The notes below the pieces were generated by a model. The model saw only the letters and a list, made by a program, of their open reading frames with translations. It was not told the origin of the DNA and ran no database searches. A stretch of DNA of 64,000 nt from Laetmonice hystrix (Eukaryota), in contig OZ249436.1 in the NCBI GenBank assembly GCA_965235115.1, positions 30,568,001-30,632,000 on the forward strand, in the 5' to 3' direction. Made by a program: the position numbers and the translations under genes. Numbering within the stretch: position 1 is the first letter of the stretch; every line of letters starts with the position of its first letter. Positions 21,272-63,241 of the stretch are shown here, in pieces.

Positions 21272-22739
21272 GACCGGTGGAATTACTAGTTTATACTTCA
21301 AGACAGTTTTCATCAATCAAGGTACAAATATCTAAAGAAGCCTGTATGAGTACTGGCGTAATATAATCTTGATGCCCTGGTCACGTGGGTACCGGGGTAG
21401 TTTCTTCAGCACATTTGTGTGCTAGAATCCTCAGACTGACATTCAGTTACAGAGTACTGTTAAATTTTTGGGGGAAAAAACAGCAATAAAAAGCTAGTCA
21501 CTATGATGGTTTTTAATCATTAATGCTATATGCCCGTTTTTATCAAGTAAAAGGTGCCTGGAAAAGGTTACACTCATGATCATCTCTTGTTGAAATATCT
21601 TATTCAAAAACTCTTTTCATAAGATACTTATGAACAATATTGGAATCAAATTCAAAGGCCAGTTTTTGAAAACACCTTACGCTATGACGTGGTTTTGAGG
21701 TGACATGATCTGGTGAAAGTGGGTCAAATAAAAATGTCAAAAATGTCTTTCAACTCTTGCCATATTTAGTGAAAAAATTCCCTTCGCCCCATGACGTACT
21801 GTGTTTGATAGAGAGAGCTGGCCATCAGTCTGCCATCTCAGTTTCATTCCAATAACTGTATGACACCATTTCAAATAAATTCTAAGTTTGCAATAGTTTT
21901 GCCACCACAACGACGGATACTATTTTGACAAGCAAAGGCTCTAGGAACTACGGGTAAGCTTCCATCAAGTCCTTACTGATTTTTCCTTACGACAAAAATG
22001 TACAACTATGGTTCATAATTATGCCTTTTTTATTTGTCAACAGTTCTCTCACAAATAACAATCCTTGGTAGGACATATATACAATCACATGATCAACACT
22101 TGTCCAAATATATACACATTCAAACTGCAGCAATACCGTTGATTAGCCATTTTAAATGGGTAGGTCCGTACACAAAAGGAAATGTTCACCCTACAATTAA
22201 CCTACACGTCAACTATTTTTTCCTCTTTCTCTCGACATGCATGACAAATAGAAAATATTCTGTGCAGACACCAAAAACAGATCTTGTGTCACTCTTTCAG
22301 AAAATGTATTTTGACTTGAGCAACGTGCGTTTTTGCACTACTGACACAATAAATTTAGATTACTGTACAATGTATGGAACCACGATTTTTTTCCATTTCC
22401 CTTTTGACTTCTAACCTTTTTTTTTATATATATCTTCATACCTGTTTATATGGATGTTTTCACCATGTACACTGCTGTTTATTCTGGCAGTAATCCAAAT
22501 TGGCAATAGAGAGGGCATGTTGTCGGATCACCCAATGGGAAGGTCAGACCTGAAGGGGCAGGGACTTTTTTCTCCATTTCCTGACTTCGTGACCACACTT
22601 CAGTCTGAGGTTAACATCTGCTGGGAAGCAGGGACAAGAGAATGGTGACTGACATTAGGGGGGGGGGGTGACGAGCATGGAATTTCTTTAATAGGGGTTT
22701 CAGGTTTCCGCCATTTTAGTTTTAACATGTATTAATTAA

Positions 22740-23259
22740 AGGGAGTCGTAAAATTCATTTTTTTCGATTTATGGCAGTCTTAGAAACATATGATTCGCAT
22801 ACCTTGGACTCCCAGTAACATCATGTGAGACTGTTATGGCCCAGCGAATAGTATTTAGTAAGCAAAATCTCGCAAATACGTAGCTCAGAATTAGCGAGCG
22901 GCCCACAGGATATTTGAGTTGGCTGCGGCCGGGCGATGATCACGCGTGATCACGTGACTTCCGGGTGTACATGTATGCGGTATTTAGGTCAACGCTCGAC
23001 TAGAGGGAGATTCCCTTCCACACCCGGAAGTCACGTGATCACGCGTGATCATCGCCCGACCATCGACCCTCAAATATCCTGTGGGCCGTTCGCTAATTCT
23101 GAGTTACGTATTTGCGAGAGATTTGGCATATTTTCCTTACTAAATACTGGTCGCTGGGCCATAACAGTCTCACATGATGTTACTGGGAGTCCAAGGTATG
23201 CGAATCATATGTTTCTAAGACTGCCATAAATCGAAAAAAAATGAATTTTACGACTCCCT
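22740..23259. mobile_element. Fold-back MITE with TTAA TSD (Kolobok-like), copy 1
   Basis: ~230-bp arms starting AGGGAGTCGTAAAATTC, ~50-bp spacer; TTAA at 22736-22739 and 23260-23263; second copy at 57356-57887. Confidence 0.92.
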
Positions 23260-31037: not shown

Positions 31038-34000
31038 ATGATGGCGGCGCCCACGATGGGATCGAGAGTGGTCGTGTCGGGATTTACAGGTTTGTTTTAT
31101 ACAAGTAACAGGGTACTATGGAGAAACATGGCAGATTTATTGATACATATAGAGATGTTCGTAATTTTTGGTTTAATCTTGTAAGTTGTAGGAATTAAAA
31201 ACGAAGCAATATTTATGCCAACCCTGTGGCGATAATGGGGGTCCTGACAATGTCAATAACTGAATTAGGGCAGCACATGACATGTGCCGAATACAACCAA
31301 AGATAACGTCAACAATATGGTCGTTACAACCATTACTAATGATCAAAGACGCCTTAAAGGGCAAATATAATATGGCTTTTTGGGTTACCAGACGCGAGTG
31401 CCTTGCATTACGTGCGCTCCGCTCTGTGCGCTACGTCGACTCGGTCAGGCCGCTGCAGGAAATTATAATTTATAGTCGATTCGCTCCAGATCGGTCTCAA
31501 CAACCTAGTCGTTTCACCCCACTCTTGAAATCTTTTCGCCCACTCTTGAAGTAGTTTTGTCCCATCCAATGATCTTGAAGATCATTTGCCCCCGTACATT
31601 TTGGGGCAGTAGTTTGCCAAGATTTATTCACAAATTTCGAGATAGGACACGTCTGGGGCGCTGGGGCTGTCATGCTTAGGTCGTAAGGCCAATGATTTTC
31701 CGCGATCGCGTGAAACGGACGGAAATGACGGAATTTGCATAATGAAACGGAATCATGAGTTTCAAACAGAATTTTCAAATAAAGTTAAAGTGTGGCAGAC
31801 AAGTTTTCTGGCCGGCCCAATACATGTAAAATCTGTGTATATCAGGCCATGATATACACGGAATGGCGGTACGTTTTCTATTGCTGGTAATGATTGGCTG
31901 ATAGTATGCTGAGCTAATGCGATCAGCCCCACTAATTTAGAGCCAAATAGACTAATTTTAACTATAAAATTACGAAACGGAATTGTATATTGGCTGAAAT
32001 GGAAAAGGTCAGATTTTGAAACAGAAAATCATTGTCCCTCAAGGTGGTACACAGGAGGTTCAGACATCAGTTGCTCAAAGGAAGCAGAAGGGAGGCACAA
32101 GCATTGCCGTGGGTGCAGAATGGAGGCACTTGTTGCGGTGGTTGCAAAATGGAGGCACAGTGGTCGCCCAATGGTCGTCGAGGAGGTTGCTTGCCCACAG
32201 GTGGCTCAAGGGTCGCCTAGGAGGCAGAAGCATGGCTGAATGGTTGCCCAGTGATCGCCGTTGGTCGCGATGATGGGACAGAGGAGTAGATTGCCATGAA
32301 AATGTCCGAAAATTGCATTTTTGGTGGTTCAAGGGAGGCACAAGGATCGCTGGACCAGTTACATAGCAGGCCTGATATTAAGGGAAACTTGTGTAACCCA
32401 TTTTTCGTTCGCCCGTTTTTAATTTTAGGTAACCAACAGGCGAACGAAACGACCATTTGCCTGTTAATCTCAGGCTTGCAAAATTTGCAGGTGAACGGAT
32501 TTCCGTTCTCGGCCTTTCAATTTTAGGTGAACGACACGCAAACGAAACGATCGTTCGAGTCTTAAAATCAGGCCTGCATAGAACCCGAAACATGATTTTC
32601 TGGGTTTAGGCGACCATTGAGTGTCCTGGCCATGGAGGTCCAAATCCCCCCTGCGGCTATCTTTTGGGTGTGGTTATCTATTGGATATACAGTAGCCTAC
32701 ATAAATATGCAGGAAAATTGCGTTAATGCAAACGCTGTTACTGTCAACCCATATTGAGATATTTCATGTTCGTCACCAATTTTTTACATTATAATATGTA
32801 ATACCAGGCCTCGAATTACATGACGGCATCAACGGCATTTGCCTTTTCCTTGTATCGTAAATTTTCTGCCATGCCCTGGAAAAATCTGACGTTGATTCTT
32901 ATGTATCGACGGCAGTTTTTGCCGTGCCCCTCTCAACTTCTAATTAGAGGCCTGTAATACTTAGAATGCCCTTAAGAATTTTAACCTTTTTTGTATTTTC
33001 CAGTGGTTCCAGTAAAGTTTAATGAAGCCAGCACTGCTTCTCACTTTCTGTACATAAAGGAGCATCTGGTGCGTGAAGCTAATCCAAACAAACCCAGAGA
33101 GAGGACTCTATTTGTACTCAATGTCCCACCATACTGCACTGAAGTAAGTAAATTTACTGTGTTTGTGTTTGAAAAAATAGAAGGTGTTGAACATTTTTTC
33201 CATGGCTATGAATAAGCTGCAGGTCATTTTTAGAGCAAAAGTCATAAAAACAAAAATTAATGCCAACCCTCTGAGATGTGTATCAGCTAGATGCTTTAAC
33301 AGCCTCAGGGGGAGATCTGGGGCCCGTCTTACTAAAGCTGGTTATTAACGATATAGTTAACCGCTGGTAAAGTAGGCCGTCGCCAAGGCGATAACCAGAC
33401 AACGTTACAACGTTAGCGGTACCCCCTCCCCAGCCGTTAAGTTAACCAGACCGCTCCCTATACGTTACGCTACTAACTAGACCTTAGTAAGACGGGTTTT
33501 AACCAGCTCTAGTTAATAACGATTTCTGGTTATTAACCAGCTGAGAGTTAACCAGATCGGGCTTAACCAGCTTTAGTAAGACGGGGCCCTGGGGTCTATA
33601 TTCAGGGGGGGGGGGGTCTGAGTCTGATCATGGTGTGAGAACTCATGGTCCAAATGCCAGTGTCACCATCACCTCCCATTGTTAATCGGGCTGTTGCTTT
33701 CCCTCAGCTTTTTTTTATTGGATCCATCATAATATTGACACATAAAACAATGGGGGTTAAAGGGGACACCACAGATTTTGGGATATAGCAGCCCAGCTCA
33801 CATTGGGAACCTTACGACCTAGGGAGAATATCCTGAACTAACTTATAGGCTGTCCTTAGACAGTAGCTACATGTATCTATAAGCTGCACCCCCGATTTAT
33901 AAGTAGTTTGAGGAGGAAAGAAAGTGTAGCCTGTACACGGATGATTAAAGCCTTACCTTGAGCTGAGGTTTCTTTGCCTCCCTCCCCCCCCCCCCCAAAA

Positions 34001-40300: not shown

Positions 40301-42552
40301 ATATAGGAGACAGTCGCATACAATCAAGAAACTCTTTTCAAGGTTTGCCTCTAAACTAAGATTCTAGTGGTATAGTCGATTAAGGATGGCCCCTTTCACT
40401 TACCAGTAGGTGTGTAGGTGGTGGCAAGGGCTGTGATAAAATTGCATGTGAAATGCGGCGAGAGCTTTGGTAGAGTGTGGAGACTAGATGCTGCTCCAGG
40501 TACCAAGAGGCAGTAATCGCCAACAATTGTCGTCACAACTTTAGCGACCGCATCTGTACTGCAGCCTTGCCTCTGTTCCAATTAAATCATGAGAAAAAAA
40601 AACCTCATTATTGCTGTATTTCAAATTTTACATCTACTGACATTATTTATACACACTTACTTGGTATGTGTAGCCAGGATGTGAAGTTTCATTCTAAGAT
40701 ATTATACAACTCATTTTAGCAATGAACTAATACCTGCATCCAAATCTCTGTTCATATCTTGAGGTGGAAACAGCTTTGAATGGAATTTCCATATAACTCA
40801 GATGGCTTAGCCTAAATAATGAATCTAGTATTAAATAAGAATAACTTTTTTGTAGATTCATATAAATTATTTGAAAGATTTCCCACCTGCATCCACACAG
40901 CAGCACAGTCGAGTAAAGAACTGTTGCTCACACCAATCGCCATGGAGACCAACTTTGCAAGAAAATCACATCTTGTAGGTGACAAGGTGCCAGAAAACAT
41001 TGCTTTGAAGACAGAATGCCTCAGCCAATCATTAGACATGTCTCTGCTGTAGTATTCCACCACAATCTCTAGGACCTGAAGCTGCTGAATAGCACTCAGT
41101 TTCTGAAATAAAAAAACATAGTACCTATATTACAACAGGGTGGGAAAATACTCTCAAAATGTAATTACAACTCTTGTTTGCTGATTCATTCTCCAGGGGT
41201 AGATTTCGTGCGTGATTTTTTAGGAGTCAGCAGGACTCCCAAGTTACAAAATTTAGGAGTCCGCCAAAAAATGCGGGAGTCCACTATCTTTAGTTTTAGG
41301 GAATACAACGTAACTGGATGTAAAAAAGACCAATTACAGACGGTGTTATTATATGCATATGGCATCGCTCCGAGTGCGAGATGGGCCTATCTCAGCACGC
41401 GTCAGGCCAGTTCAGGCCGAGCCTTTAGGCGAGGCCTGAACTGGCCTGACAAGTGCTGAGATAGGCCCATCTCGCACGAGGAGCAATGCCATATGCATTT
41501 TCTCGCATGATATCCATTTTCTACCAATTAAAACCAGTATTACAAGAGAAAAACAGCCGTTTCTAAGCTAATCATTGTGTTAAGCATTGTGCAATATATA
41601 TTACTACGCATAGGGTTTCTGGGCCATGGTTACGTCAGGGCGCGGTTTCTATTAGAATGACTACGTTATTATGACGGAACAGTTGTATTGTCATCACTAA
41701 GATACTGTAACGTCACAATAGTTTTGGACAAGTGCCATTGTTGCAGGAGGCCAGAGCAAAGACGATGTGACAACAAAACTCCTTGACCCGCGCCTCACTC
41801 TCGACGTTGCAAAGTCACTTTTAATACCCTTTATTAGAAATACTGTATGATATGCAAAATAAATCGTGAGAAATACAGATTCTGTGAGAGTATCTGTGTG
41901 AGGCACTACTTGATGACGCACAATGAGGCGTTTGTTTACATGCGTTATGCGTAGTCATTAGAACTACTTCCCTGGGAGTGCGAGATGGGCTCATCCCAGC
42001 ACTGGTGTCAACATTGTGTCGTCACATCAGAGTGCGAGAAGCCATAATAATTTGGCATAAACACTCATATTAGTCTTGTGACCCCTGCTGAGTAACAGAT
42101 ATTCTGTTCACCGTGACTGGGCGATCATCACCTTGTCCTCGGTTAAAATCTGCATCAGTCTGTGTGTAAATATCTAGGAGACAGCCGGACTCCTGGTCAG
42201 GTGGCTGCCAGGAGTCTGTCCCAATTTTTGGTAGTCTCGGACTCACGGACTCCCGTCGAAATCGACCCCTGTTCTCCCTTTTAGACAGCACTGAGATGCA
42301 CAACAACAAAATTTATAAACCTAAAAACAGACTACATAACAGCAGATACAAATCTACCTTTGTTTGGCCATTTCTCCCTGGTACTTCTTGAAAAAGGAAT
42401 TCGTTGGCCAACTGTTCAGCCACCTCCTCATCGGCACCTCCAAGGCCTGGGATACCAACATCTTGGGAGAAACACGATCCCAACCTTTCCAGTGCAAGAC
42501 GGCTTGATTCTGGAAAGGCCAGCCTCCTCAGCGAACTCATCATGTCTGACAT
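37307..42552 (-). CDS. INTS15: Integrator complex subunit 15 (C7orf26 homolog), 8 coding exons, ~425 aa
   Basis: Exons 42552-42358, 41102-40887, 40572-40404, 39204-39083, 38944-38717, 38298-38061, 37627-37588, 37376-37307 (1278 nt). Peptides LSAIQQLQVLEI, KLVSMAI, LLDCAAVWMQ, DYCLLVPG, SPHFTCNFIT, LELITNWILED, TPIPGLVRW, SRLHLALLQ and RLVQILQVAL align with C7orf26/INTS15 as recalled. A probable non-coding first exon ends at donor CAG/GTATGT at 43257. Confidence 0.88.
39342..40195. mobile_element. Tc1/mariner-type non-autonomous element, INTS15 intron
   Basis: Long imperfect TIRs (~200 bp) starting TCGGGTGGATAAAAAAAAACGCCC; TA flanks. Confidence 0.85.
41194..42271. mobile_element. hAT-like MITE with 5-bp TSD, carrying a nested element with a ~145-bp palindrome (~41353-42040)
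   Basis: TIR CAGGGGTAGATTTCG / CGAAATCGACCCCTG; TTCTC on both sides; GGAGTC/GACTCC subterminal motifs; palindrome at 41353-41498. Confidence 0.8.
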
Positions 42553-43533
42553 CTTTCCAGTCCACACCTTTTGCCCCTGAAATATATGTCAGAGGTGGAA
42601 CCGGGATGAAATACTGAAAATATTCATCTTTGTCACTTCTTCAAAAAAAAGGGGGGGGGGCACGCCCATCCTCTTGGATCCACGCCTGCAAACAATGAAC
42701 GGGGGCACTTCACCCTTTGTGCTAGTTATGTTAAATACTTATGGTACGGTACCGGTGTAGTTATTCATGGTTATGGTCTGATGTTATATGGGACCACCCA
42801 CTCCATGGCCATCATCTTGTTAGTAATGTTACGTGTAAGTGAAAACATGATATATAGGCCTACGAATTGGTGAATTCAAAAAAGGGCCCAAGCCAAGTCC
42901 ACCTCAGTTTTTCTAGGCTAAAGTCATGTTTTGCATGATTTGGCCTTTTGGCTTTAGGTGAAAAGTTTTAATTTGTGCGCCAGATCGTGCCAACTCCCAG
43001 CAATATGCATAATTTCCTAGAGTAAGAGTTGAGCCTTTTTTGAACTCACCGTGTAGAAAATTATTCCTTATGGTCGCCCTTATTGAATTCAAATCATAGA
43101 TTCTGCCTATTTCTAACAGATCCCCACCCCCTCCTACCGGCGGTAGGCCTAGTCTACTCTCAGTCTCACTCACTGTTGTGTTGAGTGTTGTGTTGAAACT
43201 TGGGAAAGCCTAAACGTATTTAGGCTAACACTGGGGTTATGTGTCGCCATACATACCTGGCTAAATGAGCGGAATACCCTAGCCAAATATGCACCTTTAG
43301 TCAGCCTTTAATAGATCTAGGCGGTTCATTTAGGCCTATCTAAACCGTCACATAGCATGATAGGCCCTACATGTGCATCAAACCCTCTCCATCCGACACC
43401 TGACACATTTCTACGACCGGAAACATTGAATCTAGGTCACGGTATTCAAACGGTAGATGGCGCTGCAAAAGAAATCTATCCACTGGGCCCCCTGTTGGTT
43501 CAAATCCGCATAGAACTGTACTGTATAGCCTAA

Positions 43534-44053
43534 AGCGGTGTTTCCATTAACGCGGCTGCGGCCCGGGCACGGGTACGGCTGATAAGACACGTCGTTGTTT
43601 TTAAAGGTGCGTCCCGGCTGCGTCTCAATGTTGTTGGTATAGCCTAAGGTCATAGGCCATACATCTGCCTAATCGATAAGTTTTTCGTTAAGTTTTTGGA
43701 TGTCTTGCTTGCTGACCACGTGAGGCATGGTGCCATCCATTTTTTGAGTGAAGAACATGCACGTGACCACCTGGGATCAAGGGGATCCCTCATGCGGCTC
43801 ATCTGCGGCTGTGCTCGAATCGCTCCATGACGCGATCGGGAACAGCCGCATGCGACGTCCGGACGGGCGCCGTACGGAGATCGCATTAATGGAAACACTT
43901 AGATCTACATTAAAAACAACGACGTGCGATATCAGCCGTACCCGTGCCCGGACCACAGCCGGGCCGCAGCCGCGTTAATGGAAACACCGCTTTATCAGCC
44001 GTACCGTGCCCGCACCGCAGCCGGGCCGCAGCCGCGTTAATGGAAACACCGCT
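43534..44053. mobile_element. Harbinger-type MITE family A, copy 1 (43534-43991) plus a duplicated right end
   Basis: TIR AGCGGTGTTTCCATTAACGCGGCTGCGG; TAA/TTA flanks; near-identical to the copies at 54302-54761 and 54765-55227. Confidence 0.9.
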
Positions 44054-44454
44054 TTATAGTGGGGCGGATATGTGAAAGTATTGTGGGTTTGATGAAACAA
44101 GCATGAAATTTGGTACACAGGTAGATTATGCCTCAGTGGTGATTTTTAGAAATAGGGCCATCTCAGATTCTACCTGTGTCCATGTTACCATGGCAACCAA
44201 TAAACCGTCTGATTTTGCTTAGCAACCGGCACTGTATGGCTCCAATGAGAGAATGAAACACCCCTAGTGCCCATACTCCCACCGAATCGATATCAGGGAT
44301 CAGCATGGTAACATCAGCATTTTCATATTATCAGTCTGTTGCTTAGCAACAAACCTAAAATCCACATTTCCTTAGCAACCAGCTTTATATTGCTTCAACG
44401 AGCAAATACAACACCCCTACCCCCACCAAATTGATATTAGTGATCAACATGGTA

Positions 44455-45234
44455 GGGGAAAGCGGGGCATAACGGGCCACACTTTTTCAAATGTTTTTTT
44501 TTGAAAAATCGTTACCCACCTGGAACATGAAAATAGTACAGCAGTATACCTACTACCAACCTTTATTACCAGTTCTGATTAGGAACAGTTTTAACTTCTA
44601 GGAAATAAAAAACACAACTTTTTAAAAATTGAACACTGTCCCATCGTGCCCCTTGAGTACGGGGTATTACGGGACGCTGTTAACACAGGGTCGGGGCTGA
44701 CCGGTACAGTCAGTTTACAGACACAAATCACAGACGTAATATGCAGGGGGACTGCCCCCATTGCCCTGCCCCCCCCCCCCCCCTCCGTGGATGCCCACGC
44801 GCTAACTACTCATGGGGTATGATGGGACAGTTACCCATTGTGGCCCATAAGCCACTGTCCCATTATGCCCCACCCTTAACGTCACAAAGATGTCCTCTTC
44901 CCGCCAGAGTAGATGATGCATCACGAGCTACGTAATGAATGTTTACTCCATAATGCCCACACTAACTGTTGGTGTGAGAATAGTCAGTCATTCTTAGTTC
45001 TAGAGACTCAGGGGGTGTCAAGTATTTACCTGGCGGAAGTTTGGGTGCCAAGACTTTCAGGTCTGTAGATGATTACAGAAAAATGTGGGTCTGACGTTCG
45101 GATCCGTCAACACCAATATGTCTTCCATCAAGGCTGTGACAACTATAGGGAATCCCAGCCCCATCTGATGGAAAGTGTAGAAGCTAGAGCCATGTCCCTT
45201 CATGCCCCGAGTCCCGCCATGCCCCGCTTTCCCC
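44455..45234. mobile_element. TA-TSD MITE (Tc1/mariner-pogo type) inside an Academ subterminal repeat
   Basis: TIR GGGGAAAGCGGGGCAT / ATGCCCCGCTTTCCCC; it splits catggTAccatcag, which is intact in the neighbouring repeat at ~45375. Confidence 0.88.
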
Positions 45235-45633
45235 TACCATCAGTATGTTTATATGATCATCCTGTTGCCTAGCAACAGGCATAACATCAAATTTTCCTTA
45301 GCAACCAGCACCATATAGCTCGAATGAATGACGAAAACACCCCTACCCCCACCAAATTCATACCAGCTGTCAACATGGTACCATCAGTATTTTCATATTA
45401 TCATCCTGTTGCCTAGCAACAGGGATAACATCAAATTTTGCTTAGCAACCAGAACCATACGACCCGAATGAGCGACAAATACACCCCTACCCCCAGCAAA
45501 TTGATACCAGGTGTCAACATGGTAACATCCGGTAGACTATACCTCAGTGTTGATTTTTAGCTATAGGGCCATCTCAGATTCGACCTGTGACAAAAATAGC
45601 GGCTATTTCCAAGATGGCCGCCATCGCTTATTA

Positions 45634-46081
45634 GGCTGAGTTCACATAGGAGTATACGGCACGGGTATACGGTGCACGTTTTGCAGGGCACGCGAATAGC
45701 TTAAATCGTACAATAGGATCTTATAATACCGGGTCACATCAGATGGCACTATTCGAAAAGGCGTATAGTATAGTATAGTGGGAATCGTGCGTGTTCGATT
45801 TTAGTGCAGCGTATACCTTGGGGTGCCTGTGTTTAAAAGTTCAGCATTTACACAGTTCTTGATATTTTTTAACTAAATTTTCAGCTCTAAGGGCCGATAT
45901 ATAGGGGTATTGACTCTGAAAGTTTCAAAGAAATCAGTTCAAGGGGAGGGGCAGGGGGGCACCTTTCAATTCATGTCGGGAATTAAGACACTGGCGGGCG
46001 TGACTCGCCGTGCCCGTATAGCGTATAGCGAATACCGAATACCGAATACCGTATACCGTTTTCTCCTATGTGAACTCAGCC
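45634..46081. mobile_element. Harbinger-type MITE
   Basis: TIR GGCTGAGTTCACATAGGAG / CTCCTATGTGAACTCAGCC; TTA/TAA flanks. Confidence 0.88.
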
Positions 46082-46702
46082 TAAGAAATTATTTCTTCTG
46101 TTTTTGTAGGTAGCAAAGGTACACACAATAGCTTGCAAGTCAATAGGATTGAAATTGTGTCCAAACAGTAATGAACTGTTCTCTGTGAGCCACGTCACTC
46201 AGAGCACTGTCCACCGCACTGACAAAGAGCTGTACATTGAAGAGATGCCTTGTGACATTTGCAGCGTCCTCTGCAGCCGTTCTTGCAGCCATATCGCAAG
46301 AGTTCCCTGCAAGCTTCTGATGCTTGAACTGGTAGTGTCGTCCAGGTTATACACTATCCACCACCAGGCTTCCTGTTCCAACCCCATTCACTTGGTGACG
46401 GAAGCTCTGGAGCAGGGGTCATCATTTGGGCCCAACAGTGATCAGCCTGGTAGGCAGCTCTCTTAGTGTGTTGGATGAGTGCAGCATGTGTGGGAGGCAG
46501 ACCATCAATAGCTCTACCTTTCTTGCTGAACAGCTGTTTCCTTGCCTGGTTCACACCCTCCTCTGTGCTGGTGCGATCATACAGAAGGACCACAAATCGC
46601 TCCAGTGGTTGCATCCACTCGTCAATGGGTCTGGCATGGTACCCAAGGCGCAGAATGCTGGTGTGACGTCTATATAGGTAGACCTGGGGCCCGTTTCACT
46701 AA

Positions 46703-49700
46703 TACCCCCATCACACTGGAAGGCGATCTAGCTGCGCTCTAGAAAATGGGCCAGATCGCCGTAGAGCGCGGATAGAGTGCCCTGAGGTCCTTCTCAGCGT
46801 CATAGGAGCGAGATAGTGTCTCCCTGGGTCGCCATGTCACCATGAGCGCCATGAGCGGCGACCACTTTTGAACATGCACAAAATTTACGCCGCGGGGTCG
46901 CCGTGGATCTAAAAGCGCAGTTAAGCCCCAGTCCCACCAAAGCCGATTGTACGACGTTCTATGCCGTTCTATCAAGATCTGAAATTTAGTTTAAGTCGTG
47001 ATGAATCGTGATAAAATCATGACAACCCGAAGAGCTAGCTACGAATCTATCATGTTCTATCCCGACATCGGCCCGACCTTCCCGACAGCACAACGACTAA
47101 AGCAACGTTCACTGCCGACCTATGCAGATTGAGCTTCGACCTATCAAGATCCCGGCCCGATGTATGGCGACCTATACCAAGATTGACAAACGATGTAGCA
47201 ACGTTCTATGCCGTGCCCCAGCCGAGCTACGACCTGTCCCGATGACATCAGGTCTAGATCAGGGCTAAAGCCCCAGTCCCACCAAAGCCGAATTAGCTAC
47301 GACGTGTCACGATCTGATAAATCGTGTAGAATCTGGAAAGGTCATAACTCGGTCGTAAAGTTGTCGTGATAGATCCTCATAGGTCGGGATAGGCCACGAT
47401 TGCACCCCAACAATTTTAAACTGTTCAAAACAATCGGCATTGGTCGGGGAAAAGCTCAAATCGGGGATATACCGTAGGTCAAACGTTGCTCAGTCGGGAA
47501 TAGTCGGGGGACAATCGGGATAGTTCGTTGTTCAGTCCTGGTTGATCGTAGGACAATCGCCAGACATTTCCTAGATCTAGCCCTGACGTCATCTGGACAG
47601 GTCGTAGCTCGGCTGGGGCTCAGACGGCATAGAACGTTGCTACATCGTTGGTCAAACATAGGGTCGGGTTCTTGATAGGACGTAGCTCAATCTGCATAGG
47701 TCGGCAGAGAACGTTGCTAAGTTGTTTCTCGGTCGGGAAGGTCGGGAGGATGTCGAGATAGAACATGATAGCACGCAGCGTGATCGTTGAGAGATCTTTG
47801 GAAAACCGTTGCCCAGTCGCCGTTGAACGTGACAATCCGTAGCTAGGTCTTCGGGTTGTCATTATTTCATCACGATTCATCACGACTTAAAATAAATTTT
47901 AGATCTTGATAGAACGGCATGGAACGTAGTACAATCGGCTTTGGTGGGAGTGGGGCTTAATTTTCTGGCAATTGTCCTACGATAAACCAGGACTGAACAA
48001 CGAACTATCCCGATTGTTCCCCGACTATATTCCCGACTGAGCAACGTTTGACCTACGATATAGCCCCGATCTGAGCTTTTTCCCGACCAATGCCGATTGT
48101 TTTGAACAGTTCAAAATTGTCGCGACCTATGAGGATCTATCAAGACTACTCTACGACCGAGTTAGGACCTTTCCCGATTCTACACGATTTATCAGATCGT
48201 GACACGTCGTAGCTAATTCGGCTTTGGTGGGACTGGGGCTTAAAGCCCCAGTCCCACCAAAGCCGATTGTACGACGTTCTATGCCGTTCTATCAAGATCT
48301 GAAATTTAGTTTAAGTCGTGAGGAATCGTTATGAAATCATGAAAACCCGAAGACCTAGCTACGAATCTATCATGTTCTATCCCGACATCGGCCCGACCTT
48401 CCCGACAGCGCAACGACTAAAGCAACGTTCACTGCCGACCTATGCAGATTGAGCTTCGACCTATCAAGATCCAGGCCCGATGTATGGTGACCTATACCAA
48501 GATTGACAAACGATGTAGCAACGTTCTATGCCGTGCCCCAGCCGAGCTACGACCTGTCCCGATGACATCAGGTCTAGATCAGGGCTGAAGCCCCAGTCCC
48601 ACCAAAGCCGAATTAGCTACGACGTGTTACGATCTGATAAATCGTGTAGAATCGGGAAAGGTCCTAACTCGGTCGTACAGTAGTCTTGATAGATCCTCAT
48701 AGGTCGGGATAGGCCACGATTGCACCCCGACAATTTTAAACTGTTCAAAACAATCGGCATTGGTCGGGGAAAAGCTCAAATCGGGGATATACCGTAGGTC
48801 AAACGTTGCTCAGTCGGGAATAGTCGGGGGACAATCGGGATAGTTCGTTGTTCAGTCCTGGTTGATCGTAGGACAATCGCCAGACATTTCCTAGATCTAG
48901 CCCTGACGTCATCTGGACAGGTCGTAGCTCGGCTGGGGCTCAGACGGCATAGAACGTTGCTACATCGTTGGTCAAACATCGGGTCGGGTTCTTGATAGGA
49001 CGTAGCTCAATCTGCATAGGTCGGCAGAGAACGTTGCTAAGTTGTTTCTCGGTCGGGAAGGTCGGGAGGATGTCGAGATAGAACATGATAGCACGCAGCG
49101 TGATCGTTGAGAGATCTTTGGAAAACCGTTGCCCAGTCGCCGTTGAACGTGACAATCCGTAGCTAGGTCTTCGGGTTGTCATTATTTCATCACGATTCAT
49201 CACGACTTAAAATAAATTTTAGATCTTGATAGAACGGCATGGAACGTAGTACAATCGGCTTTGGTGGGAGTGGGGCTTAATTTTCTGGCAATTGTCCTAC
49301 GATAAACCAGGACTGAACAACGAACTATCCCGATTGTTCCCCGACTATATTCCCGACTGAGCAACGTTTGACCTACGATATAGCCCCGATCTGAGCTTTT
49401 TCCCGACCAATGCCGATTGTTTTGAACAGTTCAAAATTGTCGCGACCTATGAGGATCTATCAAGACTACTCTACGACCGAGTTAGGACCTTTCCCGATTC
49501 TACACGATTTATCAGATCGTGACACGTCGTAGCTAATTCGGCTTTGGTGGGACTGGGGCTTAAAGCCCCAGTCCCACCAAAGCCGATTGTACGACGTTCT
49601 ATGCCGTTCTATCAAGATCTGAAATTTAGTTTAAGTCGTGAGGAATCGTTATGAAATCATGAAAACCCGAAGACCTAGCTACGAATCTATCATGTTCTAT

Positions 49701-51333
49701 CCCGACATCGGCCCGACCTTCCCGACAGCGCAACGACTAAAGCAACGTTCACTGCCGACCTATGCAGATTGAGCTTCGACCTATCAAGATCCAGGCCCGA
49801 TGTATGGTGACCTATACCAAGATTGACAAACGATGTAGCAACGTTCTATGCCGTGCCCCAGCCGAGCTACGACCTGTCCCGATGACATCAGGTCTAGATC
49901 AGGGCTGAAGCCCCAGTCCCACCAAAGCCGAATTAGCTACGACGTGTTACGATCTGATAAATCGTGTAGAATCGGGAAAGGTCCTAACTCGGTCGTACAG
50001 TAGTCTTGATAGATCCTCATAGGTCGGGATAGGCCACGATTGCACCCCGACAATTTTAAACTGTTCAAAACAATCGGCATTGGTCGGGAAAAATCTCAAA
50101 TCGGGGATATACCGGAGGTCAAACGTTGCTCAGTCGGGAATAGTCGTGGGACAATCGGGATAGTTCGTTGTTCAGTCCTGGTTGATCGTAGGACAACCGC
50201 CAGACATTTCCTAGATCTAGCCCTGACGTCATCGGGACAGGTCGTAGCTCGGCTGGGGCTCAGACGGCATAGAACGTTGCTACATCGTTGGTCAAACATC
50301 GGGTCGGGTTCTTGATATGACGTAGCTCAATCTGCATAGGTCGGCAGAGAACGTTGCTAAGTTGTTTCTCGGTCGGGAAGGTCGGGGGGATGTCGAGATA
50401 GAACATGATAGCACGCAGCGTGATCGTTGAGAGATCTTTGGAAAACCGTTGCCCAGTCGCCGTTGAACGTGACAATTCGTAGCTAGGTCTTCGGGTTGTC
50501 ATTATTTCATCACGATTCATTACGACTTAAAATAAATTTTAGATCTTGATAGAACGGCATGGAACGTAGTACAATCGGCTTTGGTGGGACTGGGGCTTAA
50601 TTTTCTGGCAATTGTCCTACGATAAACCAGGACTGAACAACGAACTATCCCGATTGTTCCGCGACTATATTCCCGACTGAGCAACGTTTGACCTACGATA
50701 TAGCCCCGATCTGAGCTTTTTCCCGACCAATGCCGATTGTTTTGAACAGTTCAAAATTGTCGCGACCTATGAGGATCTATCAAGACTACTCTACGACCGA
50801 GTTAGGACCTTTCCCGATTCTACACGATTTATCAGATCGTGACACGTCGTAGCTAATTCGGCTTTGGTGGGACTGGGGCTTTAGATCGAAATGCGATCAC
50901 CATCAGCGTCCTAGCGGCGCAGTACCAGATTCCTGAGAGCGCAGGTCGAGCGCCAGTGAACGGTGTAGCATCGGCCTTCCCGTCCCATGGCGCTGGCCCG
51001 GCGGTCTTACCACGATGCCACCGAGACCTCAGTGACCCTAATGAGCCCTTTACACGCTCCGCACGGTGCTGTCGCTGCGCTTATGACGTCAGAGCTGCGC
51101 TCTTGCTGCGCAGTGAGCGCAGTGTGATCGTTTAGGACGTGGTAGCAACGCCATACGACGTGGTAGGGACGGCCTAAATCGTCCAAGAATTGCATTTTTC
51201 CTCGTCGTGGCAGCGGGATGGGAGCGGCATGGCAGTCACACTTGGAGGGGTTTTCCGATGTTGACGGCGACCAACGGCGATCTGCTAGGTCGCCGTGGTC
51301 GCCGTTAGGTCTTCATCCAGTGTGATGGGGGTA
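46703..51333. mobile_element. Harbinger-type MITE C nested in B
   Basis: TIR TACCCCCATCACACTGGA / TCCAGTGTGATGGGGGTA; TAA TSD on both sides. Confidence 0.9.
46924..50880. repeat. Three tandem 1320-bp units of MITE D, each holding an inverted nested MITE D copy
   Basis: TIR AGCCCCAGTCCCACCAAAGCCGA; units 46924-48240, 48244-49560 and 49564-50880 separated by TAA; outer TSD TTA; inner copy 47269-47957 with TAA TSD. Confidence 0.93.
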
Positions 51334-51510
51334 TAATGGTGACATCCCCGCGACATCCCCGATTTAGGGACATCCCCACTCAAAGTGTTCCACTAACATG
51401 TCCCTCCCTGGGGACATCCCCAATTCAGGCAATGTTAATTTCGAGGACATTATAGTGAAACGGGATGTCTCTGAATGGTGGATGTCCCCACTTGGGGATG
51501 TCCTCGCTAA

Positions 51511-51800
51511 AGCCCCAGTCCCACCAAAGCCGATTGTACGATGTTCTATGCCGTGAACAACGAACTATCCCGATTGTTCCCCGACTATATTCCCGACTGA
51601 GCAACGTTTGACCTACGATATAGCCCCGATCTGAGCTTTTTCCCGACCAATGCCGATTGTTTTGAACAGTTCAAAATTGTCGCGACCTATGAGGATCTAT
51701 CAAGACTACTCTACGACCGAGTTAGGACCTTTCCCGATTCTACACGATTTATCAGATCGTGACACGTCGTAGCTAATTCGGCTTTGGTGGGACTGGGGCT
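51511..51800. mobile_element. Internally deleted MITE D copy (290 bp)
   Basis: Same TIR as MITE D; TAA/TTA flanks. Confidence 0.9.
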
Positions 51801-52149
51801 TTAGTGAAACAGGCCCCAGGTGTCCCATGCAGTCTTCTTGCCCCTGCCGCCAAAACAGGACAGGGTGTCACATCCAGTGAAGGCATGGAACATCGGCAAG
51901 GCCACACATCGGTCAGGACCAAGAGCTTTGGCGATCTCATGAGCAGCGATGAATCTGAAGCTCTTCCCAGCTCCAAAGGCAATCCACAGTTCAGATATGT
52001 TGAGGCGATTGGCTGATGCTATGGCCAGGACTGCCACATCTGTGTCAACTGTTCGTATTGCCACTTTGCTGTATCCCTGTTGTACGGCATCCTGTAGGTG
52101 CAGGAGGATACGAGTGTCAGCTCCTCATGAGTGCATGGCGTGGAGCAGA

Positions 52150-52831
52150 CACCCACACCCCACTAACCCCCACCCCCGGTCATGTAGTCCCACCCACACC
52201 CCACTAACCCCCACCCCCAGTCGTGTAGTCCCACCCACACCCCACTAGCCCCCACCCCCAGTCATGTAGTCCCACCCACACCCTACTAACCCCCACCCCA
52301 GTCATGTAGTCCCACCCACACCCCACTAACCCCCACCCCAGTCATGTAGTCCAACCCACACCCCACTAACCCCCACCCCCGGTCATGTAGTCCCACCCAC
52401 ACCCCACTAACCCCCACTCCAGTCATGTAGTCCAACCCACATCCCACTAACCCCCACCCCCGGTCATGTAGCCCCACTCACACCCCACTAAACCCCACCC
52501 CCAGTCATGTAGCCCCACCCACACCCCACTAACCCACAACCCCAGTCATGCAGCCCCGCCCACACCCCACTAACCCCCACCCCCTGTCGTGTAGTCCCAC
52601 CCCCACCCCCCAACCCCCACCCCCAATCATGTAGTCCCACCCACACCCCACTAACCCCACCCCCGGTCATGTATCCCCACCCACACCCCACTAAACCCCA
52701 CCCCCAGTCATGTAGCCCCACCCACACCCCACTAACCCACACCCCCAGTCATGCAGCCCCACCCACACCTCACTAATCCACAGCCCCAGTCATGTAGTCC
52801 CACCCACACCCCGCCCCCAGTCATGTAGTCC
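52150..52831. repeat. C-rich minisatellite, ~41-bp unit, ~16 copies
   Basis: Unit cccacccacaccccactaacccccacccccagtcatgtagt. Confidence 0.95.
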
Positions 52832-54301
52832 GTAATTTGAGCTTGTTTACTGCTGAAATGTCCCTGATACTACAGGGAGGAAGGACTTCGGACAGACTAT
52901 TTGTGCCATTTGTGGCCTTGACCTTGAATTTGACCTTGACTTTAATGTCAAATCACAAGACGTATGCCACAGTTGGATTGCCTGCCTCTATATTGTAAGG
53001 AAACACTCCATTAAAACCCCAGTTTTTTTGCCATTTTTGGCCTTGACCTTGATATTTGACCTTGACCTTGAATCACAAAACAAAATTTAATGTCAAAAAA
53101 ATGGATTCCCCGTGTTGATATTGTATAGAAAAAGTGCTATTACATATGATTCTAGGCCAAATGGTTTTCAAGTTACCAGAGCTTATGACGATTTGTTATT
53201 AATTATGCTAATTTATGCAAATTAGCTTATAAAAAAAAATTCCTCAACAGCCAACCTAGGCCAACAAAGCTGAAAATCTTCACAGAGCCTATGTGGACAC
53301 AAATCAATCATAATCTCTTGCAGGTCTAAAAATTTCCGGGTTAACTGGATTGGCTACCCGACTATTAGATCTGTTCCCTGCTTGGGCCTAGCCTACTCAA
53401 TAAGTTAGCTAAGAGTGTCATGGTTACCATGAAAACCAATTTATTCCTTCTTATGTCTATACATGTGCTTAATATATATAAGACCTACGCTGGTAACCAT
53501 CAAAAAGGGAGGGTTATTCAAATATTCTGGTTACTATGGGAACTAAAATATCACCAATTCCCTCCAAATGGTCAAAATCAGACGCTTTATTGGTTACCAT
53601 GGTAACCATATAGTGCGAACAGCTGTAATTAATTAGCTTCCGACATGTCCAATGGGAGATCTTTCATTTAAGGTATCATACGCTCAGATTAAAGCATATT
53701 TCAGTTCTGTATGATTAAGTAAACGATTCCCTGGAAATTTCGTCACTGAATCAGTTGGCTAAGATTATCCATGGTTACCATGGAAACCAAATTAAATAAT
53801 CTTCATTTCTGATGTGCTTTATATACAACACATATGTACCGGTCACACTGCGTGTAAAAAGGGGAGATTTATCTAATATTCTGGTTACTATGGAAACTGA
53901 AAGGTAAGCAATTCACCCAAAATGGTCAAAATCAAACGGTTTATTGGTTACCATGGTAACCATATAGTGAGGAGAAATCTAATTTGTTTTTTTTTCTGAA
54001 TGTCCTCTCTGCGATCTTTCATTTGAGGTATGACATGGGGGTGGGAGTGGTTATATGGATTGCAGGAGCCCCAGGAAACCTGTTACCAAACATACTAGTC
54101 CGTTGCTAGGCAACACTTCTATTTTGGGGTCTGTAGAAAAATCTAAGGAATTGTCGAAATGGCCCTATAGCCAAATATCTTCCCAAGCACCTTTTTTAAC
54201 TGTCTGCCAAGTTTCATGCTTGTTTCACCAAACCCACAATTCCCTCAAAATATTGCACCTATCCGCCGTACTATTAAGCGGTTAATGGAAACACCGCTTT
54301 A

Positions 54302-55227
54302 AGCGGTGTTTCCATTAACGCGGCTGCGGTCCGGCTGCGGTGCGGGCACGGGTACGGCTGATAAGACACGTCGTTGTTTTTAGAGGTGCGTCCCGGCTGC
54401 GTCTCAATGTTGTTGGTACAAGGTCATAGGCCATACACCTGCCGAATCGATAAGTTTTTCGATAAGTTTTTCGATATCTTGCTTGCTGACCACGTAAGGC
54501 ATATGGTGTCATCCATTTTTTGAGTGAAGAACATGCACGTGACCACCTAGGATCAAGGGGATCCCTCATACGGCTCATCTGCGGCTGTGCTCGAATCGCT
54601 ACATGATGCGATCGGGAACAGCCGCATGCGACGCCCGGACGGGCGCCGTACGGAGATCGCATTAATGGAAACACTTACATTAAAAACAACGACGTGCCAT
54701 ATCAGCCGTACCCGTGCCCGCACCGCAGCCGGGCCGCAGCCGCGTTAATGGAAACACCGCTTTAAGCGGTGTTTCCATTAACGCGGCTGCGGCCCGGCTG
54801 CGGCCCGGGCACGGGTACGGCTGATAAGACACGTCGTTGTTTTTAAAGGTGCGTCCCGGCTGCGTCTCAATGTTGTTGGTATAAGGTCATAGGCCATACA
54901 CCTGCCGAATCGATAAGTTTTTCGCTAAGTTTTCGATATCTTGCTTGCTGACCACGTGAGGCATGGTGTCATCCATTTTTTGAGTGAAGAACATGCACGG
55001 GAACACCTAGGATCAAGGGAATCCCTCATGCGGCTCATCTGCGGCTGTGCTCGAATCGCTCCATGACGCGATCAGGAACAGCCGCATGCGACGCCCGTAC
55101 GGGCCCCGTACGGAGATCGCATTAATGGAAACACCTAGGCCTACATTAAAAACAACGACGTGCGATATCAGCCGTACCCGTGCCCGGACCGCAGCCGGAC
55201 CGCAGCCGCGTTAATGGAAACACCGCT
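54302..55227. mobile_element. MITE family A, two head-to-tail copies (54302-54761, 54765-55227)
   Basis: Copies separated by a single TTA; same TIR and body as 43534-43991. Confidence 0.92.
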
Positions 55228-57355
55228 TAAGTAGTGTACGTAGTAGGCCTACAGTTCTATGGTCATTCAAATGGTTAAGGAGGGCAGAGCCGGGCAGGCG
55301 CGGACCCAAGGAGTATGCAAGCAAGCACCCCCTTTTTAGGAGTGGTTTTTTTTTTCAATTAGCCTAAAGTAGCCCTATTCTTTAATTTTTGCCTTTACCT
55401 TTTCACGGCTTTCTTTTGCCCCCCCCACCCCATTATGAAACCCTGAATCCGCGCCTGGAGGGTTGATTTACCCGAAATTTCTCTGTCCGACTTTTTTCTT
55501 GTTTTGCCCGAATTTGGGAGGGCAGCCCCTCCCCCCGGCTCGTTCGCCTATATTATGACACTAGGCCTATAGGCATTGAAACACATTTCAATCGTGGGTC
55601 TAGAACCGCTTCCAGACCCTTTATCCCAAGTTAACCTCATCTTTGACCTTTGCCATGCATAAGCCTCATAGGCCTATTTATTGAAGTAGGCTAAAACTCG
55701 AAAAAATCACTTAGGAATAAGCAATTTGGCATACCGGTAGGGCCTATGCTCTTGGATAGGCCTAGTTCATATTTCATTTGTATTTTTAGGCCTATAGTAT
55801 AGCTAGGGCCTACAGGAAGAATCAGCAGGCTTAAATTAGGCCTACGTGGCACATATTGGAAAAACCATTAAATAGGCCTATAGCCTAGGCCCCTAACATG
55901 TCTATAATAAGGCCTAGGCCTATGTTACAGCGTTTGATAGACCCTGGGCCCATAGTAGGACCGCATAGGTAGCCTATAGAGTAGGCCAAAAGCAAAACGC
56001 AAAAAAAAATCGTGCAAAATCGTAAAATAATCACGCAAAAATGAGAAAATAATGCAATTAGTAATATGCTATAATTCTTCTTAAGAAAGAAGACCCAAAC
56101 CAGGGGGTCGAGCAAAATGTAAAAACAGGGAGATCGGGGGGTTCGACCCCCCCCCCCCCCCGGCAAACCCGAGTTCCGCTCGAAAGCGAAGAGTTAGGCC
56201 TACGTTTTTGAGGTAAGCCTAAAGCTAAAGGGCGGTTCTTTATTTATTTATCTTTGCTTGTCAGAAATTATCCCCTGTAAAAGAACGAAGTGGTCTTTTT
56301 TTTTTGGGGGGGGGGGGGGGGGGAATTGTTTGTGTTTGTTTGTTTGTTTGTTTGCTTGTTTTTATTTGGGGGGGGGGCAGGGTTACTTGTCAGATTCTCA
56401 TCCCGCTCGAGATCGGTCGCTTCGCAACATCGCCGGTGAGTTCCACCTATACAAAATTTTAATGTAGGCCTATAAACCTATACACTGAAAAGAAGCTGCA
56501 CCCGGCCCTCTCTCGGATCTGTCTTACTGGGAAAATATGTGTCCCTGCCTCAAACTCAGCTATGCAAGGATTATAGAGACTCTCTATAATCCTTGCTATA
56601 GGCTTATAGGCCTACAGAGCCCCACAGGGTCTGTCATTCCTCTGAGTCCTGTCGGGTGTCATTTGATAAGCATACAAATTATTTTTAAGGTGTGGGTCGA
56701 TATTGAGGTTTGAGAAAGCTGTTCATATACTGACCTTTGCCCCTCAAGTGAAGTAAGAACTTTTGGTAGTAATTTTCGATTGACCAATTTGATGGGGAGG
56801 ACAACCCAGCGGGCACAGCACGTGGAAATCACGTGGATTTGTCACGTGGAAATCACGTGGCAAACTGGTGGTATGTGTAAACTAAATTCACGTGATTTCT
56901 TCACGTGGAATACACGTGGCAAAATCACGTGAATTCACCACCAGTTTCCCACCACCCGGCAGGCAAAACTCGTGGATTTCCCGTGGAATACACGTGGATA
57001 ATTATGACCCGTGGAATACAGGCAGTGGCGGATCCAGGGCGGTGTCGGTGACGTCCGGACCCTCCCTCAAATTTGCCAAATTTAATTTTTTATAACCAAA
57101 ATGCCTTAGGCCTATTGCTTTTACAACGCCCCCCCCCTGAATATAGACCCTAGATCCGCCCCTGTACATGTTGGGAAACTGTATGTAATTTGAAAGAGCA
57201 GTAGGCTACATGTGGATATGTCCATGTGGATTACAAGACAGTGTCAGTTTCCATGTCATATCACCCAGTTTTCCATTTCTCCCGGTTGCCACATCATACA
57301 CACCGTGGGTCTGATATCCGGCTATTTTTAGCCATGATATGGCCGCAATAGTTAA

Positions 57356-57887
57356 AGGGAGTCGTAAAATTCATTTTTTTCGATTTATGGCAGTCTTAGA
57401 AACATATGATTCGCATAGGCTACCTTGGACTCCCAGTAACATCAACTGAGACTGTTATGGCCCAGCGGCCAGTATTTAGTAAGGAAAATATGCCAAATCT
57501 CTCGCAAATTCGTAGCTCAGAATTAGCGAGCGGCCCACAGGATATTTGAGTTGGCCGCGGTCGGGCGATGATGACGCGTGATCACGTGACTTCCGGGTGT
57601 GGAAGGGAATCTCCCTCTAGTCTAGTGTTGACCTAAATACCGCATGTACACCCGGAAGTCACGTGATCACGCGTCATCATCGCCCGACCGCGGCCAACTC
57701 AAATATCCTGTGGGCCGCTCGCTAATTCTGAGCTACGTATTTGCGAGAGATTTGGCATATTTTCCTTACTAAATACTGGTCGCTGGGCCATAACAGTCTC
57801 ACATGATGTTACTGGGAGTCCAAGGTATGCGAATCATATGTTTCTAAGACTGCCATAAATCGAAAAAAATGAATTTTACGACTCCCT
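57356..57887. mobile_element. Fold-back MITE with TTAA TSD (Kolobok-like), copy 2, inverted relative to copy 1
   Basis: Same arms as 22740-23259; TTAA at 57352-57355 and 57888-57891. Confidence 0.92.
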
Positions 57888-57891
57888 TTAA

Positions 57892-62995: not shown

Positions 62996-63241
62996 AGGCC
63001 TGTACCCACTAGCGCGTTTTACCGCTGCGGTCCACGCTGAGCGACAAAACGCGCTAGTGGGTTCAGGCCTTACGGCAAGCACCACCGCCTTCAGGAGATA
63101 TGTGGACATTTCCGAATTACGTGGGATTCCGAATTTTATCACGATGAATACAACAATAACAGCTAAAGGCCTGAACCCACTAGCGCGTTTTGTCGCTCAG
63201 CGTGGACCGCAGCGGTAAAACGCGCTAGTGGGTACAGGCCT
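62996..63241. mobile_element. Pair of identical 75-bp hairpin mini-MITEs in inverted orientation (62996-63070, 63167-63241)
   Basis: Each unit has ~26-bp arms AGGCCTG(T/A)ACCCACTAGCGCGTTTT; outer flanks TTA/TTA. Confidence 0.85.

Follow-up and report, generated by a model that had tools for sequence, protein, structure and literature searches.

A stretch of 64,000 nucleotides of the Laetmonice hystrix genome (assembly GCA_965235115.1, contig OZ249436.1, positions 30,568,001 to 30,632,000; here the window, in whose positions all coordinates are given) carries, upstream of the gene INTS15, a stack of about 11.7 kb (43534-55227) in which transposons lie inside one another. The stack is confirmed as a nest of non-autonomous cut-and-paste transposons, five to seven levels deep and drawn from three transposon groups. 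It consists of inserts lettered A to F, most of them MITEs (short for miniature inverted-repeat transposable elements), and of an Academ-like element, and some of the inserts are flanked by target triplets that differ at the middle base. The reading preferred here, which we hold with somewhat better than even confidence, is that the nest arose from repeated recent insertions favouring element ends and junctions, and that the unequal triplets derive from the 3-base overhangs that elements of the PIF/Harbinger group brought from their donor sites. The nest is of a known kind, a clean but ordinary piling of MITEs in an animal genome rich in repeats, while the triplet swap is a testable variant.

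Assignment to the PIF/Harbinger group relies on the ends of the elements and their target sites. A, C, D and F are likely Tourist-like MITEs of this group: they are small and non-coding, occur in many copies, and combine short terminal inverted repeats (TIRs) with TWA duplications (W, A or T). TWA flanks are present at all four, and the 3-bp length is shown by the empty site for F. Summed over A, E, F, C and D, word depth reaches thousands to tens of thousands, where the flank has about 40; this measure is not a copy number. The TIRs of PIF/Harbinger elements usually begin with A or G (PMC4482050); those of A and D begin with A and those of F with G, with C as the exception, beginning with T. 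Insert B belongs to a CWG type, and E, presumably a pogo/Fot-like element, is of a TA-specific type.

Seven single inserts of the PIF/Harbinger group with readable flanks were tallied in the window, comprising B, C, F, D', the inverted D, and the elements at 33320 and 62996; the tally omits TA- and TTAA-type elements, the arrays, the inverted D copies of D2 and D3, and the element at about 13990-15048. A de novo MITE scan of the 80 Academ loci (71 candidate pairs) did not serve as a further count of mismatches, since sites inside any long inverted repeat can pass for TTA/TAA pairs. The middle base differs between the flanks in three of the seven (CTG/CAG for B, TTA/TAA for F, and TAA/TTA for D'), and exactly one end is foreign in each of the three. 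The empty site is given independently for F and B. Contigs from four runs (X1-X4) of one sample, which may be the window's own source and is not an independent individual, were compared over 42000-47300, and a contig of the Academ family joins across both E (780 + 2 letters skipped) and F (448 + 3). The empty site of F is thus TTA and its right triplet is foreign; a 2-bp TA duplication for F was rejected because of the 448 + 3 letters skipped. The empty site of B is CAG, the triplet that keeps a Trp codon found in the homologues, and its left triplet is therefore foreign. Keeping CTG instead places Arg where the homologues have Trp, and the spacing from this W to the following VT is 5 in all 74 homologues matched by a motif search (of 120). 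For D', a TTA empty site is suggested by the symmetry of B's TIRs and by the B-like element at 33320.

Point mutation hardly explains these unequal triplets, since three mismatches among seven have P of about 4e-7 at 1% divergence and 1e-3 at 5%. The arrays display the same feature in another form. All seven array junctions are TWA triplets, and the junction spacer differs from the flanking target in both arrays, with TTA at the inner junctions and TAA at the outer flanks of the A array, and TAA inside and TTA outside in the D array.

The proposed mechanism builds on mPing, which is excised by a staggered cut across its duplications, with a 5' overhang proposed (PMC4561436), and whose 3-nt overhangs bring TTA/TAA from the donor into breaks made by Cas9 (PMC11254759). 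For the inserts described here, the transposase would cut both donor triplets with a 3-nt 5' stagger, and the free element would retain a single strand from each triplet. Where the target differs in its middle base, the overhang would pair with a central T:T or A:A mismatch and would sometimes be ligated instead of trimmed, after which replication or repair would fix the donor base at one end only. The single foreign end of each mismatched insert matches this prediction. A second copy landing on the triplet of a first copy would likewise produce the odd junction triplets of the A and D arrays. The wider proposition, that PIF/Harbinger-group elements here integrate in the style of piggyBac, often ligating the donor overhang, and that a large share of their insertions have non-identical duplications recording the donor, is one to which we give just short of an even chance.

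Nesting is observed, and the timing of the events would be as follows. A small CATAGA element would have received A copies head-to-tail, and a deleted AcademX element would then have entered an A-A junction. E, F and B would have inserted into the Academ-like element, C into the left TIR of B, and D into C. A second D copy would have landed at the right triplet of the first, unequal sister-chromatid exchange, shown by the hybrid pattern of D2, then expanded the pair to three units, and a deleted D would have hopped into the right TIR of B.

Several points weigh against this reading. The sample is small, with seven inserts in one window, and the empty site of D' is deduced, never observed directly. 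No transposase of A to D or of F lies within the window, and the superfamily assignment depends on ends and triplets. In yeast, mPing leaving a TCA donor inserted at TTA/TAA in 45 of 46 cases and at TCA in one (PMC4561436), so overhang retention looks rare there, and free mPing insertions have intact duplications according to PMC11254759. Any middle-base swap perfects a palindrome, and hairpin-templated correction predicts the same pattern. The targeting of ends rests on a 1-in-21 coincidence together with the reuse of junctions, and no contig spans the whole stack, whose end-to-end arrangement is the assembly's alone.

The earlier note had interpreted the stack as a landing pad in which each element supplies the preferred TWA target for the next, with the nesting order giving the relative ages of family activity. 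Successive nesting and the reuse of element ends hold up, but the idea of TWA supply is weak, because TWA occurs at 0.04 per base in the window (about every 25 bp) and is not limiting, and because B uses CAG, E duplicates TA and the Academ group takes NNA. Reuse of element ends and junctions as targets has modest evidence and is better supported than TWA supply. C and D' occupy the two symmetric TWA sites of B's TIRs out of seven TWA sites in B (1 in 21 if picked evenly), and the A copies and the D copies abut at shared triplets. A comparison of per-family divergence with nesting order shows that the order applies to these copies and that family ages had been overstated. The host Academ-like element lies about 0.7-1.3% from its family contigs (7/1036, 6/598 and 4/299), whereas the inner E is about 2% from its own (16/776), with F at about 1.2% (5/405) and D1 and D3 2.2% apart. 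The families overlapped in time, and nesting dates only these copies.

Chance accumulation in a neutral sink is a rival that we entertain tentatively. It holds that open DNA beside a housekeeping promoter retains insertions that are purged elsewhere, with abundant MITEs piling up by chance and hits on ends being coincidental. The high copy level indicated by summed word depth and the density of TWA agree with it, as do the interior positions of D, the inverted D, E, F and B and the lack of a strong common 9-bp consensus among the used sites. It accounts less well for the two symmetric TIR sites taken by the inserts of B (two of seven), for the reuse of A-A and D-D junctions with the Academ-like element at one of the former, and for a single-copy contig from another place that links an A end with a C-type start (43995>46708). 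Such a sink is compatible with the overhang mechanism. Somewhat below even, in our estimate, is the chance that some layers of the stack were put together at another site and travelled as one block, as D with its inverted D or as A or D multimers formed from excised circles or end-joined dimers, leaving fewer than six events at this locus and junction triplets that derive from a donor multimer. D1 and D3 share the position of the inverted D yet differ by 2.2%, which exceeds the distance of the host Academ from its family contigs; the junction triplets are unlike the outer flanks in both arrays, complementary overhangs would permit precise circles or dimers, and circle-concatemer models exist (bioRxiv 10.1101/158386). 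A1 to A3, however, differ by 4% pairwise, as independent copies would, and the contigs that hold Academ minus E and F, or C and D ends with other flanks, indicate that the middle layers were assembled in this Academ copy or its direct parent.

An origin of the unequal triplets after insertion, by hairpin-templated correction in nests that otherwise stand as described, is unlikely. Quasi-palindrome mutagenesis exists, and a template switch between TIR arms would convert TTA...TTA to TTA...TAA. Every swap turns the flanks into a perfect inverted repeat, F forms a strong fold-back through its ends (z = -5.1), and TIR-TWA-TIR junctions are palindromes with a flippable one-base centre. Nevertheless, the arms of B keep a difference six bases from the swapped triplet (GGGCCC versus GGGCCT), the arms were about 200-450 bp apart at insertion and are now up to 5 kb apart, the copies are young, with the host about 1% from consensus, and donor overhangs have been demonstrated for mPing (PMC11254759). 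Errors of assembly or consensus, as the source of the D triple repeat or the odd triplets, are very improbable. A mis-join would also give a D2 without private changes that is a hybrid of D3 and D1, no contig spans the stack, and the D array and the right half of the stack lie outside contig coverage. Set against this, the window contains no N, and in X1, X2 and X4 the single-copy contigs of the flank differ from it by 0-1 letters. Base-calling errors are also unlikely to have changed the middle base three times independently at positions that matter to the mechanism, and unequal exchange predicts a hybrid middle unit.

Features of the nest, its host element and the neighbouring genes (window positions)
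Feature	Position	Strand	Size, ends and flanks	Evidence or remark
Probable outer remnant element	43509..55261	.	about 55 bp; 12-bp inverted ends CATAGAACTGTA	split by A array
MITE A1	43534..43991	+	TIR AGCGGTGTTTCCATTAA; left flank TAA	end searches, self-comparison
A right-end remnant	43995..44053	+	59 bp; TTA both sides	closest to A2
AcademX-like element, internally deleted	44057..54273	-	TAG...CTA ends; TTA/TTA	ends like those of full-length relatives; family contig without E, F
Insert E	44455..45234	.	780 bp; TIR GGGGAAAGCGGGGCAT; TA/TA duplication	joint 44452>45235 skips 782, with 2 ambiguous letters
Insert F	45634..46081	.	448 bp; TIR GGCTGAGTTCACATAGG; flanks TTA/TAA	joint 45632>46084 skips 451, in 3 of 4 runs
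Academ open reading frame, C-terminal part	46198..46683	-		frameshift, stop, terminal Cys cluster
MITE B, CWG type (NuwaI / Harbinger3_DR-like)	46687..51816	.	203 bp minus inserts; flanks CTG/CAG	inside Academ open reading frame
MITE C	46703..51333	.	about 670 bp minus D; TIR TACCCCCATCACACTGG; TAA/TAA	inside left TIR of B
D unit 1, outer D with inverted D (47269-47957, TAA/TAA)	46924..48240	+	left flank TTA	
D unit 2, crossover hybrid	48244..49560	+	TAA junctions both sides	
D unit 3	49564..50880	+	right flank TTA	29 differences from D1 (2.2%)
D', deletion derivative of outer D	51511..51800	+	290 bp; flanks TAA/TTA	1 substitution from D1/D2
Academ open reading frame piece, putative core of FEN1/XPG-type 5' nuclease domain	51817..52121	-		93% identity to snow crab proteins
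Minisatellite	52150..52812	.	41 bp, 16.3 copies	adjoins point of Academ open reading frame loss
Collapsed A remnant	54277..54298	+	22 bp; TTA both sides	sequence comparison
MITE A2	54302..54761	+		end searches, sequence comparison
MITE A3	54765..55227	+	right flank TAA	end searches, sequence comparison
INTS15 coding exon	40887..41102	-		Pfam PF14964, E 1.9e-19 on frame 40815-41129
INTS15 first coding exon	42316..42580	-		Pfam PF14964 profile positions 1-61, E 0.009
NAA60 (N-alpha-acetyltransferase 60) exon	27947-28213	-		protein similarity

The layers that the earlier note had named from the letters are all present with paired ends, as established by self-comparison and end searches, including the side insertions E and F, C within B, the inverted D within D, and the Academ-like element at an A-A junction with its TTA duplication. 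Two of them are more complex than described. The MITE-A array, bounded as TAA[43534-55227]TAA and the outermost of the named levels, has five members that are not only full units, two being remnants. A1, A2 and A3 diverge pairwise by 4.0-4.4%, and an origin of the 59-bp remnant as a local duplicate of the end of A1 was rejected because it is more similar to A2. The D level, placed earlier as a single TTA/TTA element in C, does occupy the block 46924-50880 with these flanks, but is made up of three units of 1,317 bp in tandem, every one of which holds an inverted D. Around the whole stack, a seventh layer of greater age is probably marked by the 12-bp inverted repeat at 43509 and 55261, a match that 2 of 3000 random pairs of 40-mers also reached. 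No target duplication of this outer remnant remains; its ends resemble those of a 156-bp element at 25592-25747, which has a direct-repeat flank.

Variation among the D units is consistent with their expansion by exchange. D2 has the alleles of D3 at unit positions 79-486 and those of D1 at 526-1098, with one exception (737); of the 29 variable sites, the first 16 group it with D3 and 12 of the last 13 with D1, and it has zero private changes. Judged by these alleles, D2 is the product expected from a D1-D3 dimer pairing out of register followed by a crossover. The inverted D sits at unit position 343, and it may have arrived already inside D. In D2 and D3 its left flank is TGA, a later or inherited change. 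D' lies in the right TIR of B at the mirror position of C.

B had been described as a CWG element within the Academ open reading frame (ORF) whose removal rejoins the frame. The CWG-type flanks within the ORF are borne out, but they do not form a true duplication, with CTG on the left and CAG on the right. Removal of B does yield TAWDTWSTYIDVTPAF when the right triplet is kept, but the frame remains broken elsewhere, with a frameshift after MPDP, a premature stop, and the loss of the N-terminal 560-1,250 amino acids (aa). The Academ copy is broken independently of B. Elements of the NuwaI group have a CWG duplication (PMC4482050), and the target consensus of zebrafish Harbinger3_DR is the 15-bp AAACACCWGGTCTTT (PMC3016246). 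The empty site of B, ACAC-CWG-GTCT, matches 11 of the 15 letters of this consensus, which form one contiguous central run, and is the second-best distinct site among the 141 CWG sites of the Academ-like element with inserts removed; by this comparison, the ORF appears to have offered a long sequence match by chance. A B-related MITE of 269 bp at 33320-33588 has matched CTG/CTG flanks and carries the same TAA inside both of its TIRs. The 16-mer pattern of B gave 21 matches in prokaryote genomes, none with wider similarity. Among viral contigs, the TIR patterns of D and F had no matches and that of A two chance matches without a second end.

Among contigs of the sample, the Academ-like element also occurs lacking E and F and, probably, lacking B. 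The joints across E and F have a word depth of about 330-750, compared with about 30-67 in the single-copy contigs listed. At 46684, the C of CTG, contig 19 departs from the window and runs on for 304 letters, as many as the ORF piece beyond B has, which fits a B-free CAG site, short of proof as the letters are unread. C ends and D ends occur with other flanks. The joint 43995>46708 (the letters between unread) and another single-copy joint, 43900>43538, which leads from an A interior back to an A start, hint that other loci hold comparable clusters. In each of X1, X2 and X3, one single-copy contig departs from the window at 43528, five bases ahead of the stack, and has 74 further letters; these, although unread, would fit a second haplotype lacking the stack, which may be heterozygous as a whole. 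The region upstream of the stack contains gaps of 19 and 40 bases and several substitutions between contig paths.

The Academ-like element is 3,851 bp long when its inserts are removed. Compared over about 110 bp, its ends and those of loci bearing the ORF match at 70-93%, and TAG...CTA termini are common to the relatives. Among the relatives, a 3-bp duplication is present in 10 of 14 loci with both ends (two of which, L006 and L017, look like a single locus); the duplications all end in A (TTA, TAA, ACA, AAA, CCA, GTA and TCA) and are mostly not TWA. The ORF piece has 412 homologues among 536 candidates, with identity up to 93%; full-length relatives are 830-1,525 aa long, and no more than about their last 265 aa have a counterpart in the window. 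The nuclease of Academ elements is XPG-type. Homologue P0014 shares 84% identity with the window piece, and its structure model (pLDDT 73) matches XRN1 (Z 12.4, root-mean-square deviation 3.9, 258 aligned), with further matches to XRN2, Exo1, T5 flap endonuclease and Rad2 in a Z range of 12.4-7; Foldseek on this model was weak (best E 0.019). As modelled, the piece fits a 5' nuclease fold of the FEN1/XPG/XRN type. The DDE region is deleted in the window copy, and Pfam gave only weak DUF6589 matches for full-length relatives. The two Academ pieces and two overlapping plus-strand frames were assigned no Pfam family, and a PDB sequence search with the homologue profile returned only a chance Cys-cluster match. 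The AcademX lineage has 3-4 bp duplications and a nuclease in place of a helicase (PMC10045372); by its 3-bp duplication and nuclease, the window element fits AcademX. No relatives were found among viral contigs, and blastn matched none of A-F in 80 Academ loci.

The subterminal regions of the Academ-like element, at 44190-45530 (144-bp unit) and 53395-54031 (units of about 180-350 bp), hold degenerate repeats in which GGTTACCATGGTAACC / GTTGCTAGGCAAC palindromes abound; its left terminal region recurs at about 45530-45640. In the flank of a related locus from another animal (L056, 17500-20100), an inverted array of about 170-bp units is present. The ORF piece (51807-52121 and 46198-46683, minus strand) has 93% protein identity to snow crab (Chionoecetes opilio), and its DNA is about 90% identical to several metagenome contigs, whereas the host NAA60 exon is only 52-69% identical to named arthropod proteins. 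The similarity suggests horizontal transfer between marine invertebrates or a contaminated crab assembly. For the NAA60 exon, the best named match is Capitella teleta (75%), followed mostly by molluscs, Lingula, lancelet and Owenia, a pattern that makes an annelid-like lophotrochozoan the likely source.

The distance of about 100-250 bp to the first exon, proposed in the earlier note, is conjectural; the stack begins about 980 bp upstream of the INTS15 ATG at 42552. A splice acceptor precedes this ATG, and an upstream non-coding exon is therefore expected; donor-like splice sites are present at 43049 and 43173. A protein search with an INTS15 exon gave zero matches. The INTS15 intron directly below the first coding exon (42070-42271) contains a high-copy repeat with a word depth above 15,000 in both X1 and X3.

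Other elements in the window include a 246-bp TWA element at 62996-63241 (TTA/TTA), in which each arm is a complete small hairpin element, so that its ends look as if formed by two mini-MITEs. At 13990-15048 there is a second, older nest with GGCCCATTCACAC ends and two long palindromic inserts (14175-14574 and 14587-14835). Two copies of a palindromic element of about 530 bp with TTAA-type ends, 88-92% alike, are present at 22736-23263 and 57352-57891.

Unequal triplets would provide genomic evidence on the end step of PIF/Harbinger-group integration, distinguishing overhang ligation from trimming and gap fill. If the wider, piggyBac-style proposition is true, every copy is tagged with one base from its parent, donor triplets pass into the tandem junctions, and up to half of these elements are discarded by pipelines that insist on the 3-bp flanks being identical. 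At least one recent survey left out candidates whose 3-bp flanks were not identical (PMC13668399), a filter that would hide the effect. Non-matching flanks lower precise mPing excision (PMC4561436), and mismatched copies would thus tend to stay or to leave footprints. Should the stack prove heterozygous beside the INTS15 promoter, its two alleles would form a natural pair on which to test expression. No paper on frequent middle-base-mismatched natural duplications was found in a literature search that covered few subscription papers.

Known systems share parts of this picture. Li et al. in 2013 reportedly described piggyBac mutations at noncanonical integration sites, and as with piggyBac, an element bringing its donor target as an overhang can alter the new target; piggyBac differs in superfamily, in its fixed TTAA and in the rarity of noncanonical sites, whereas about half of TWA/CWG jumps would start mismatched. 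The Academ-like element resembles AcademX in its 3-bp duplication, the putative 5' nuclease fold, the long ORF of its relatives and the shared TAG...CTA ends, and departs from it in having lost all but about the final 265 aa, which a frameshift and a stop interrupt, and in its minisatellite and subterminal repeats. B is like NuwaI and Harbinger3_DR in the CWG flanks that it shares with its relative at 33320-33588 and in an empty site near the consensus, and unlike them in being non-coding, with no transposase in the window, and in having CTG on one side and CAG on the other.

In rice, MITE multimers make up more than 10% of MITEs, and Tourist-like nests of rice and maize also consist of small TIR elements with TWA duplications within or next to each other, with self-insertion and independent events (Jiang & Wessler 2001, as reviewed in PMC5172404). 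The present nest differs in its animal host, its five to seven levels and its three transposon groups, and unequal triplets go unmentioned in the portion of that source available. Tandem dimers formed by double insertion and expanded by unequal exchange (McGurk & Barbash, bioRxiv 10.1101/158386) and the CMITE tandem arrays of coral (PMC2872659) have in common with the A and D arrays their head-to-tail full elements, one target-length spacer and expansion beyond two; here, though, the spacer differs from the outer flanks at the middle base and is thus no plain copy of the target. The closest likeness in mechanism is to mPing, Ping and Pong, in which the target is TWA with a free middle base and a 3-nt donor overhang accounts for a foreign base (PMC4561436, PMC11254759). 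For mPing, the donor triplet appears at Cas9 breaks and natural insertions are described as matched, whereas in the window three of the seven natural inserts would keep a donor triplet.

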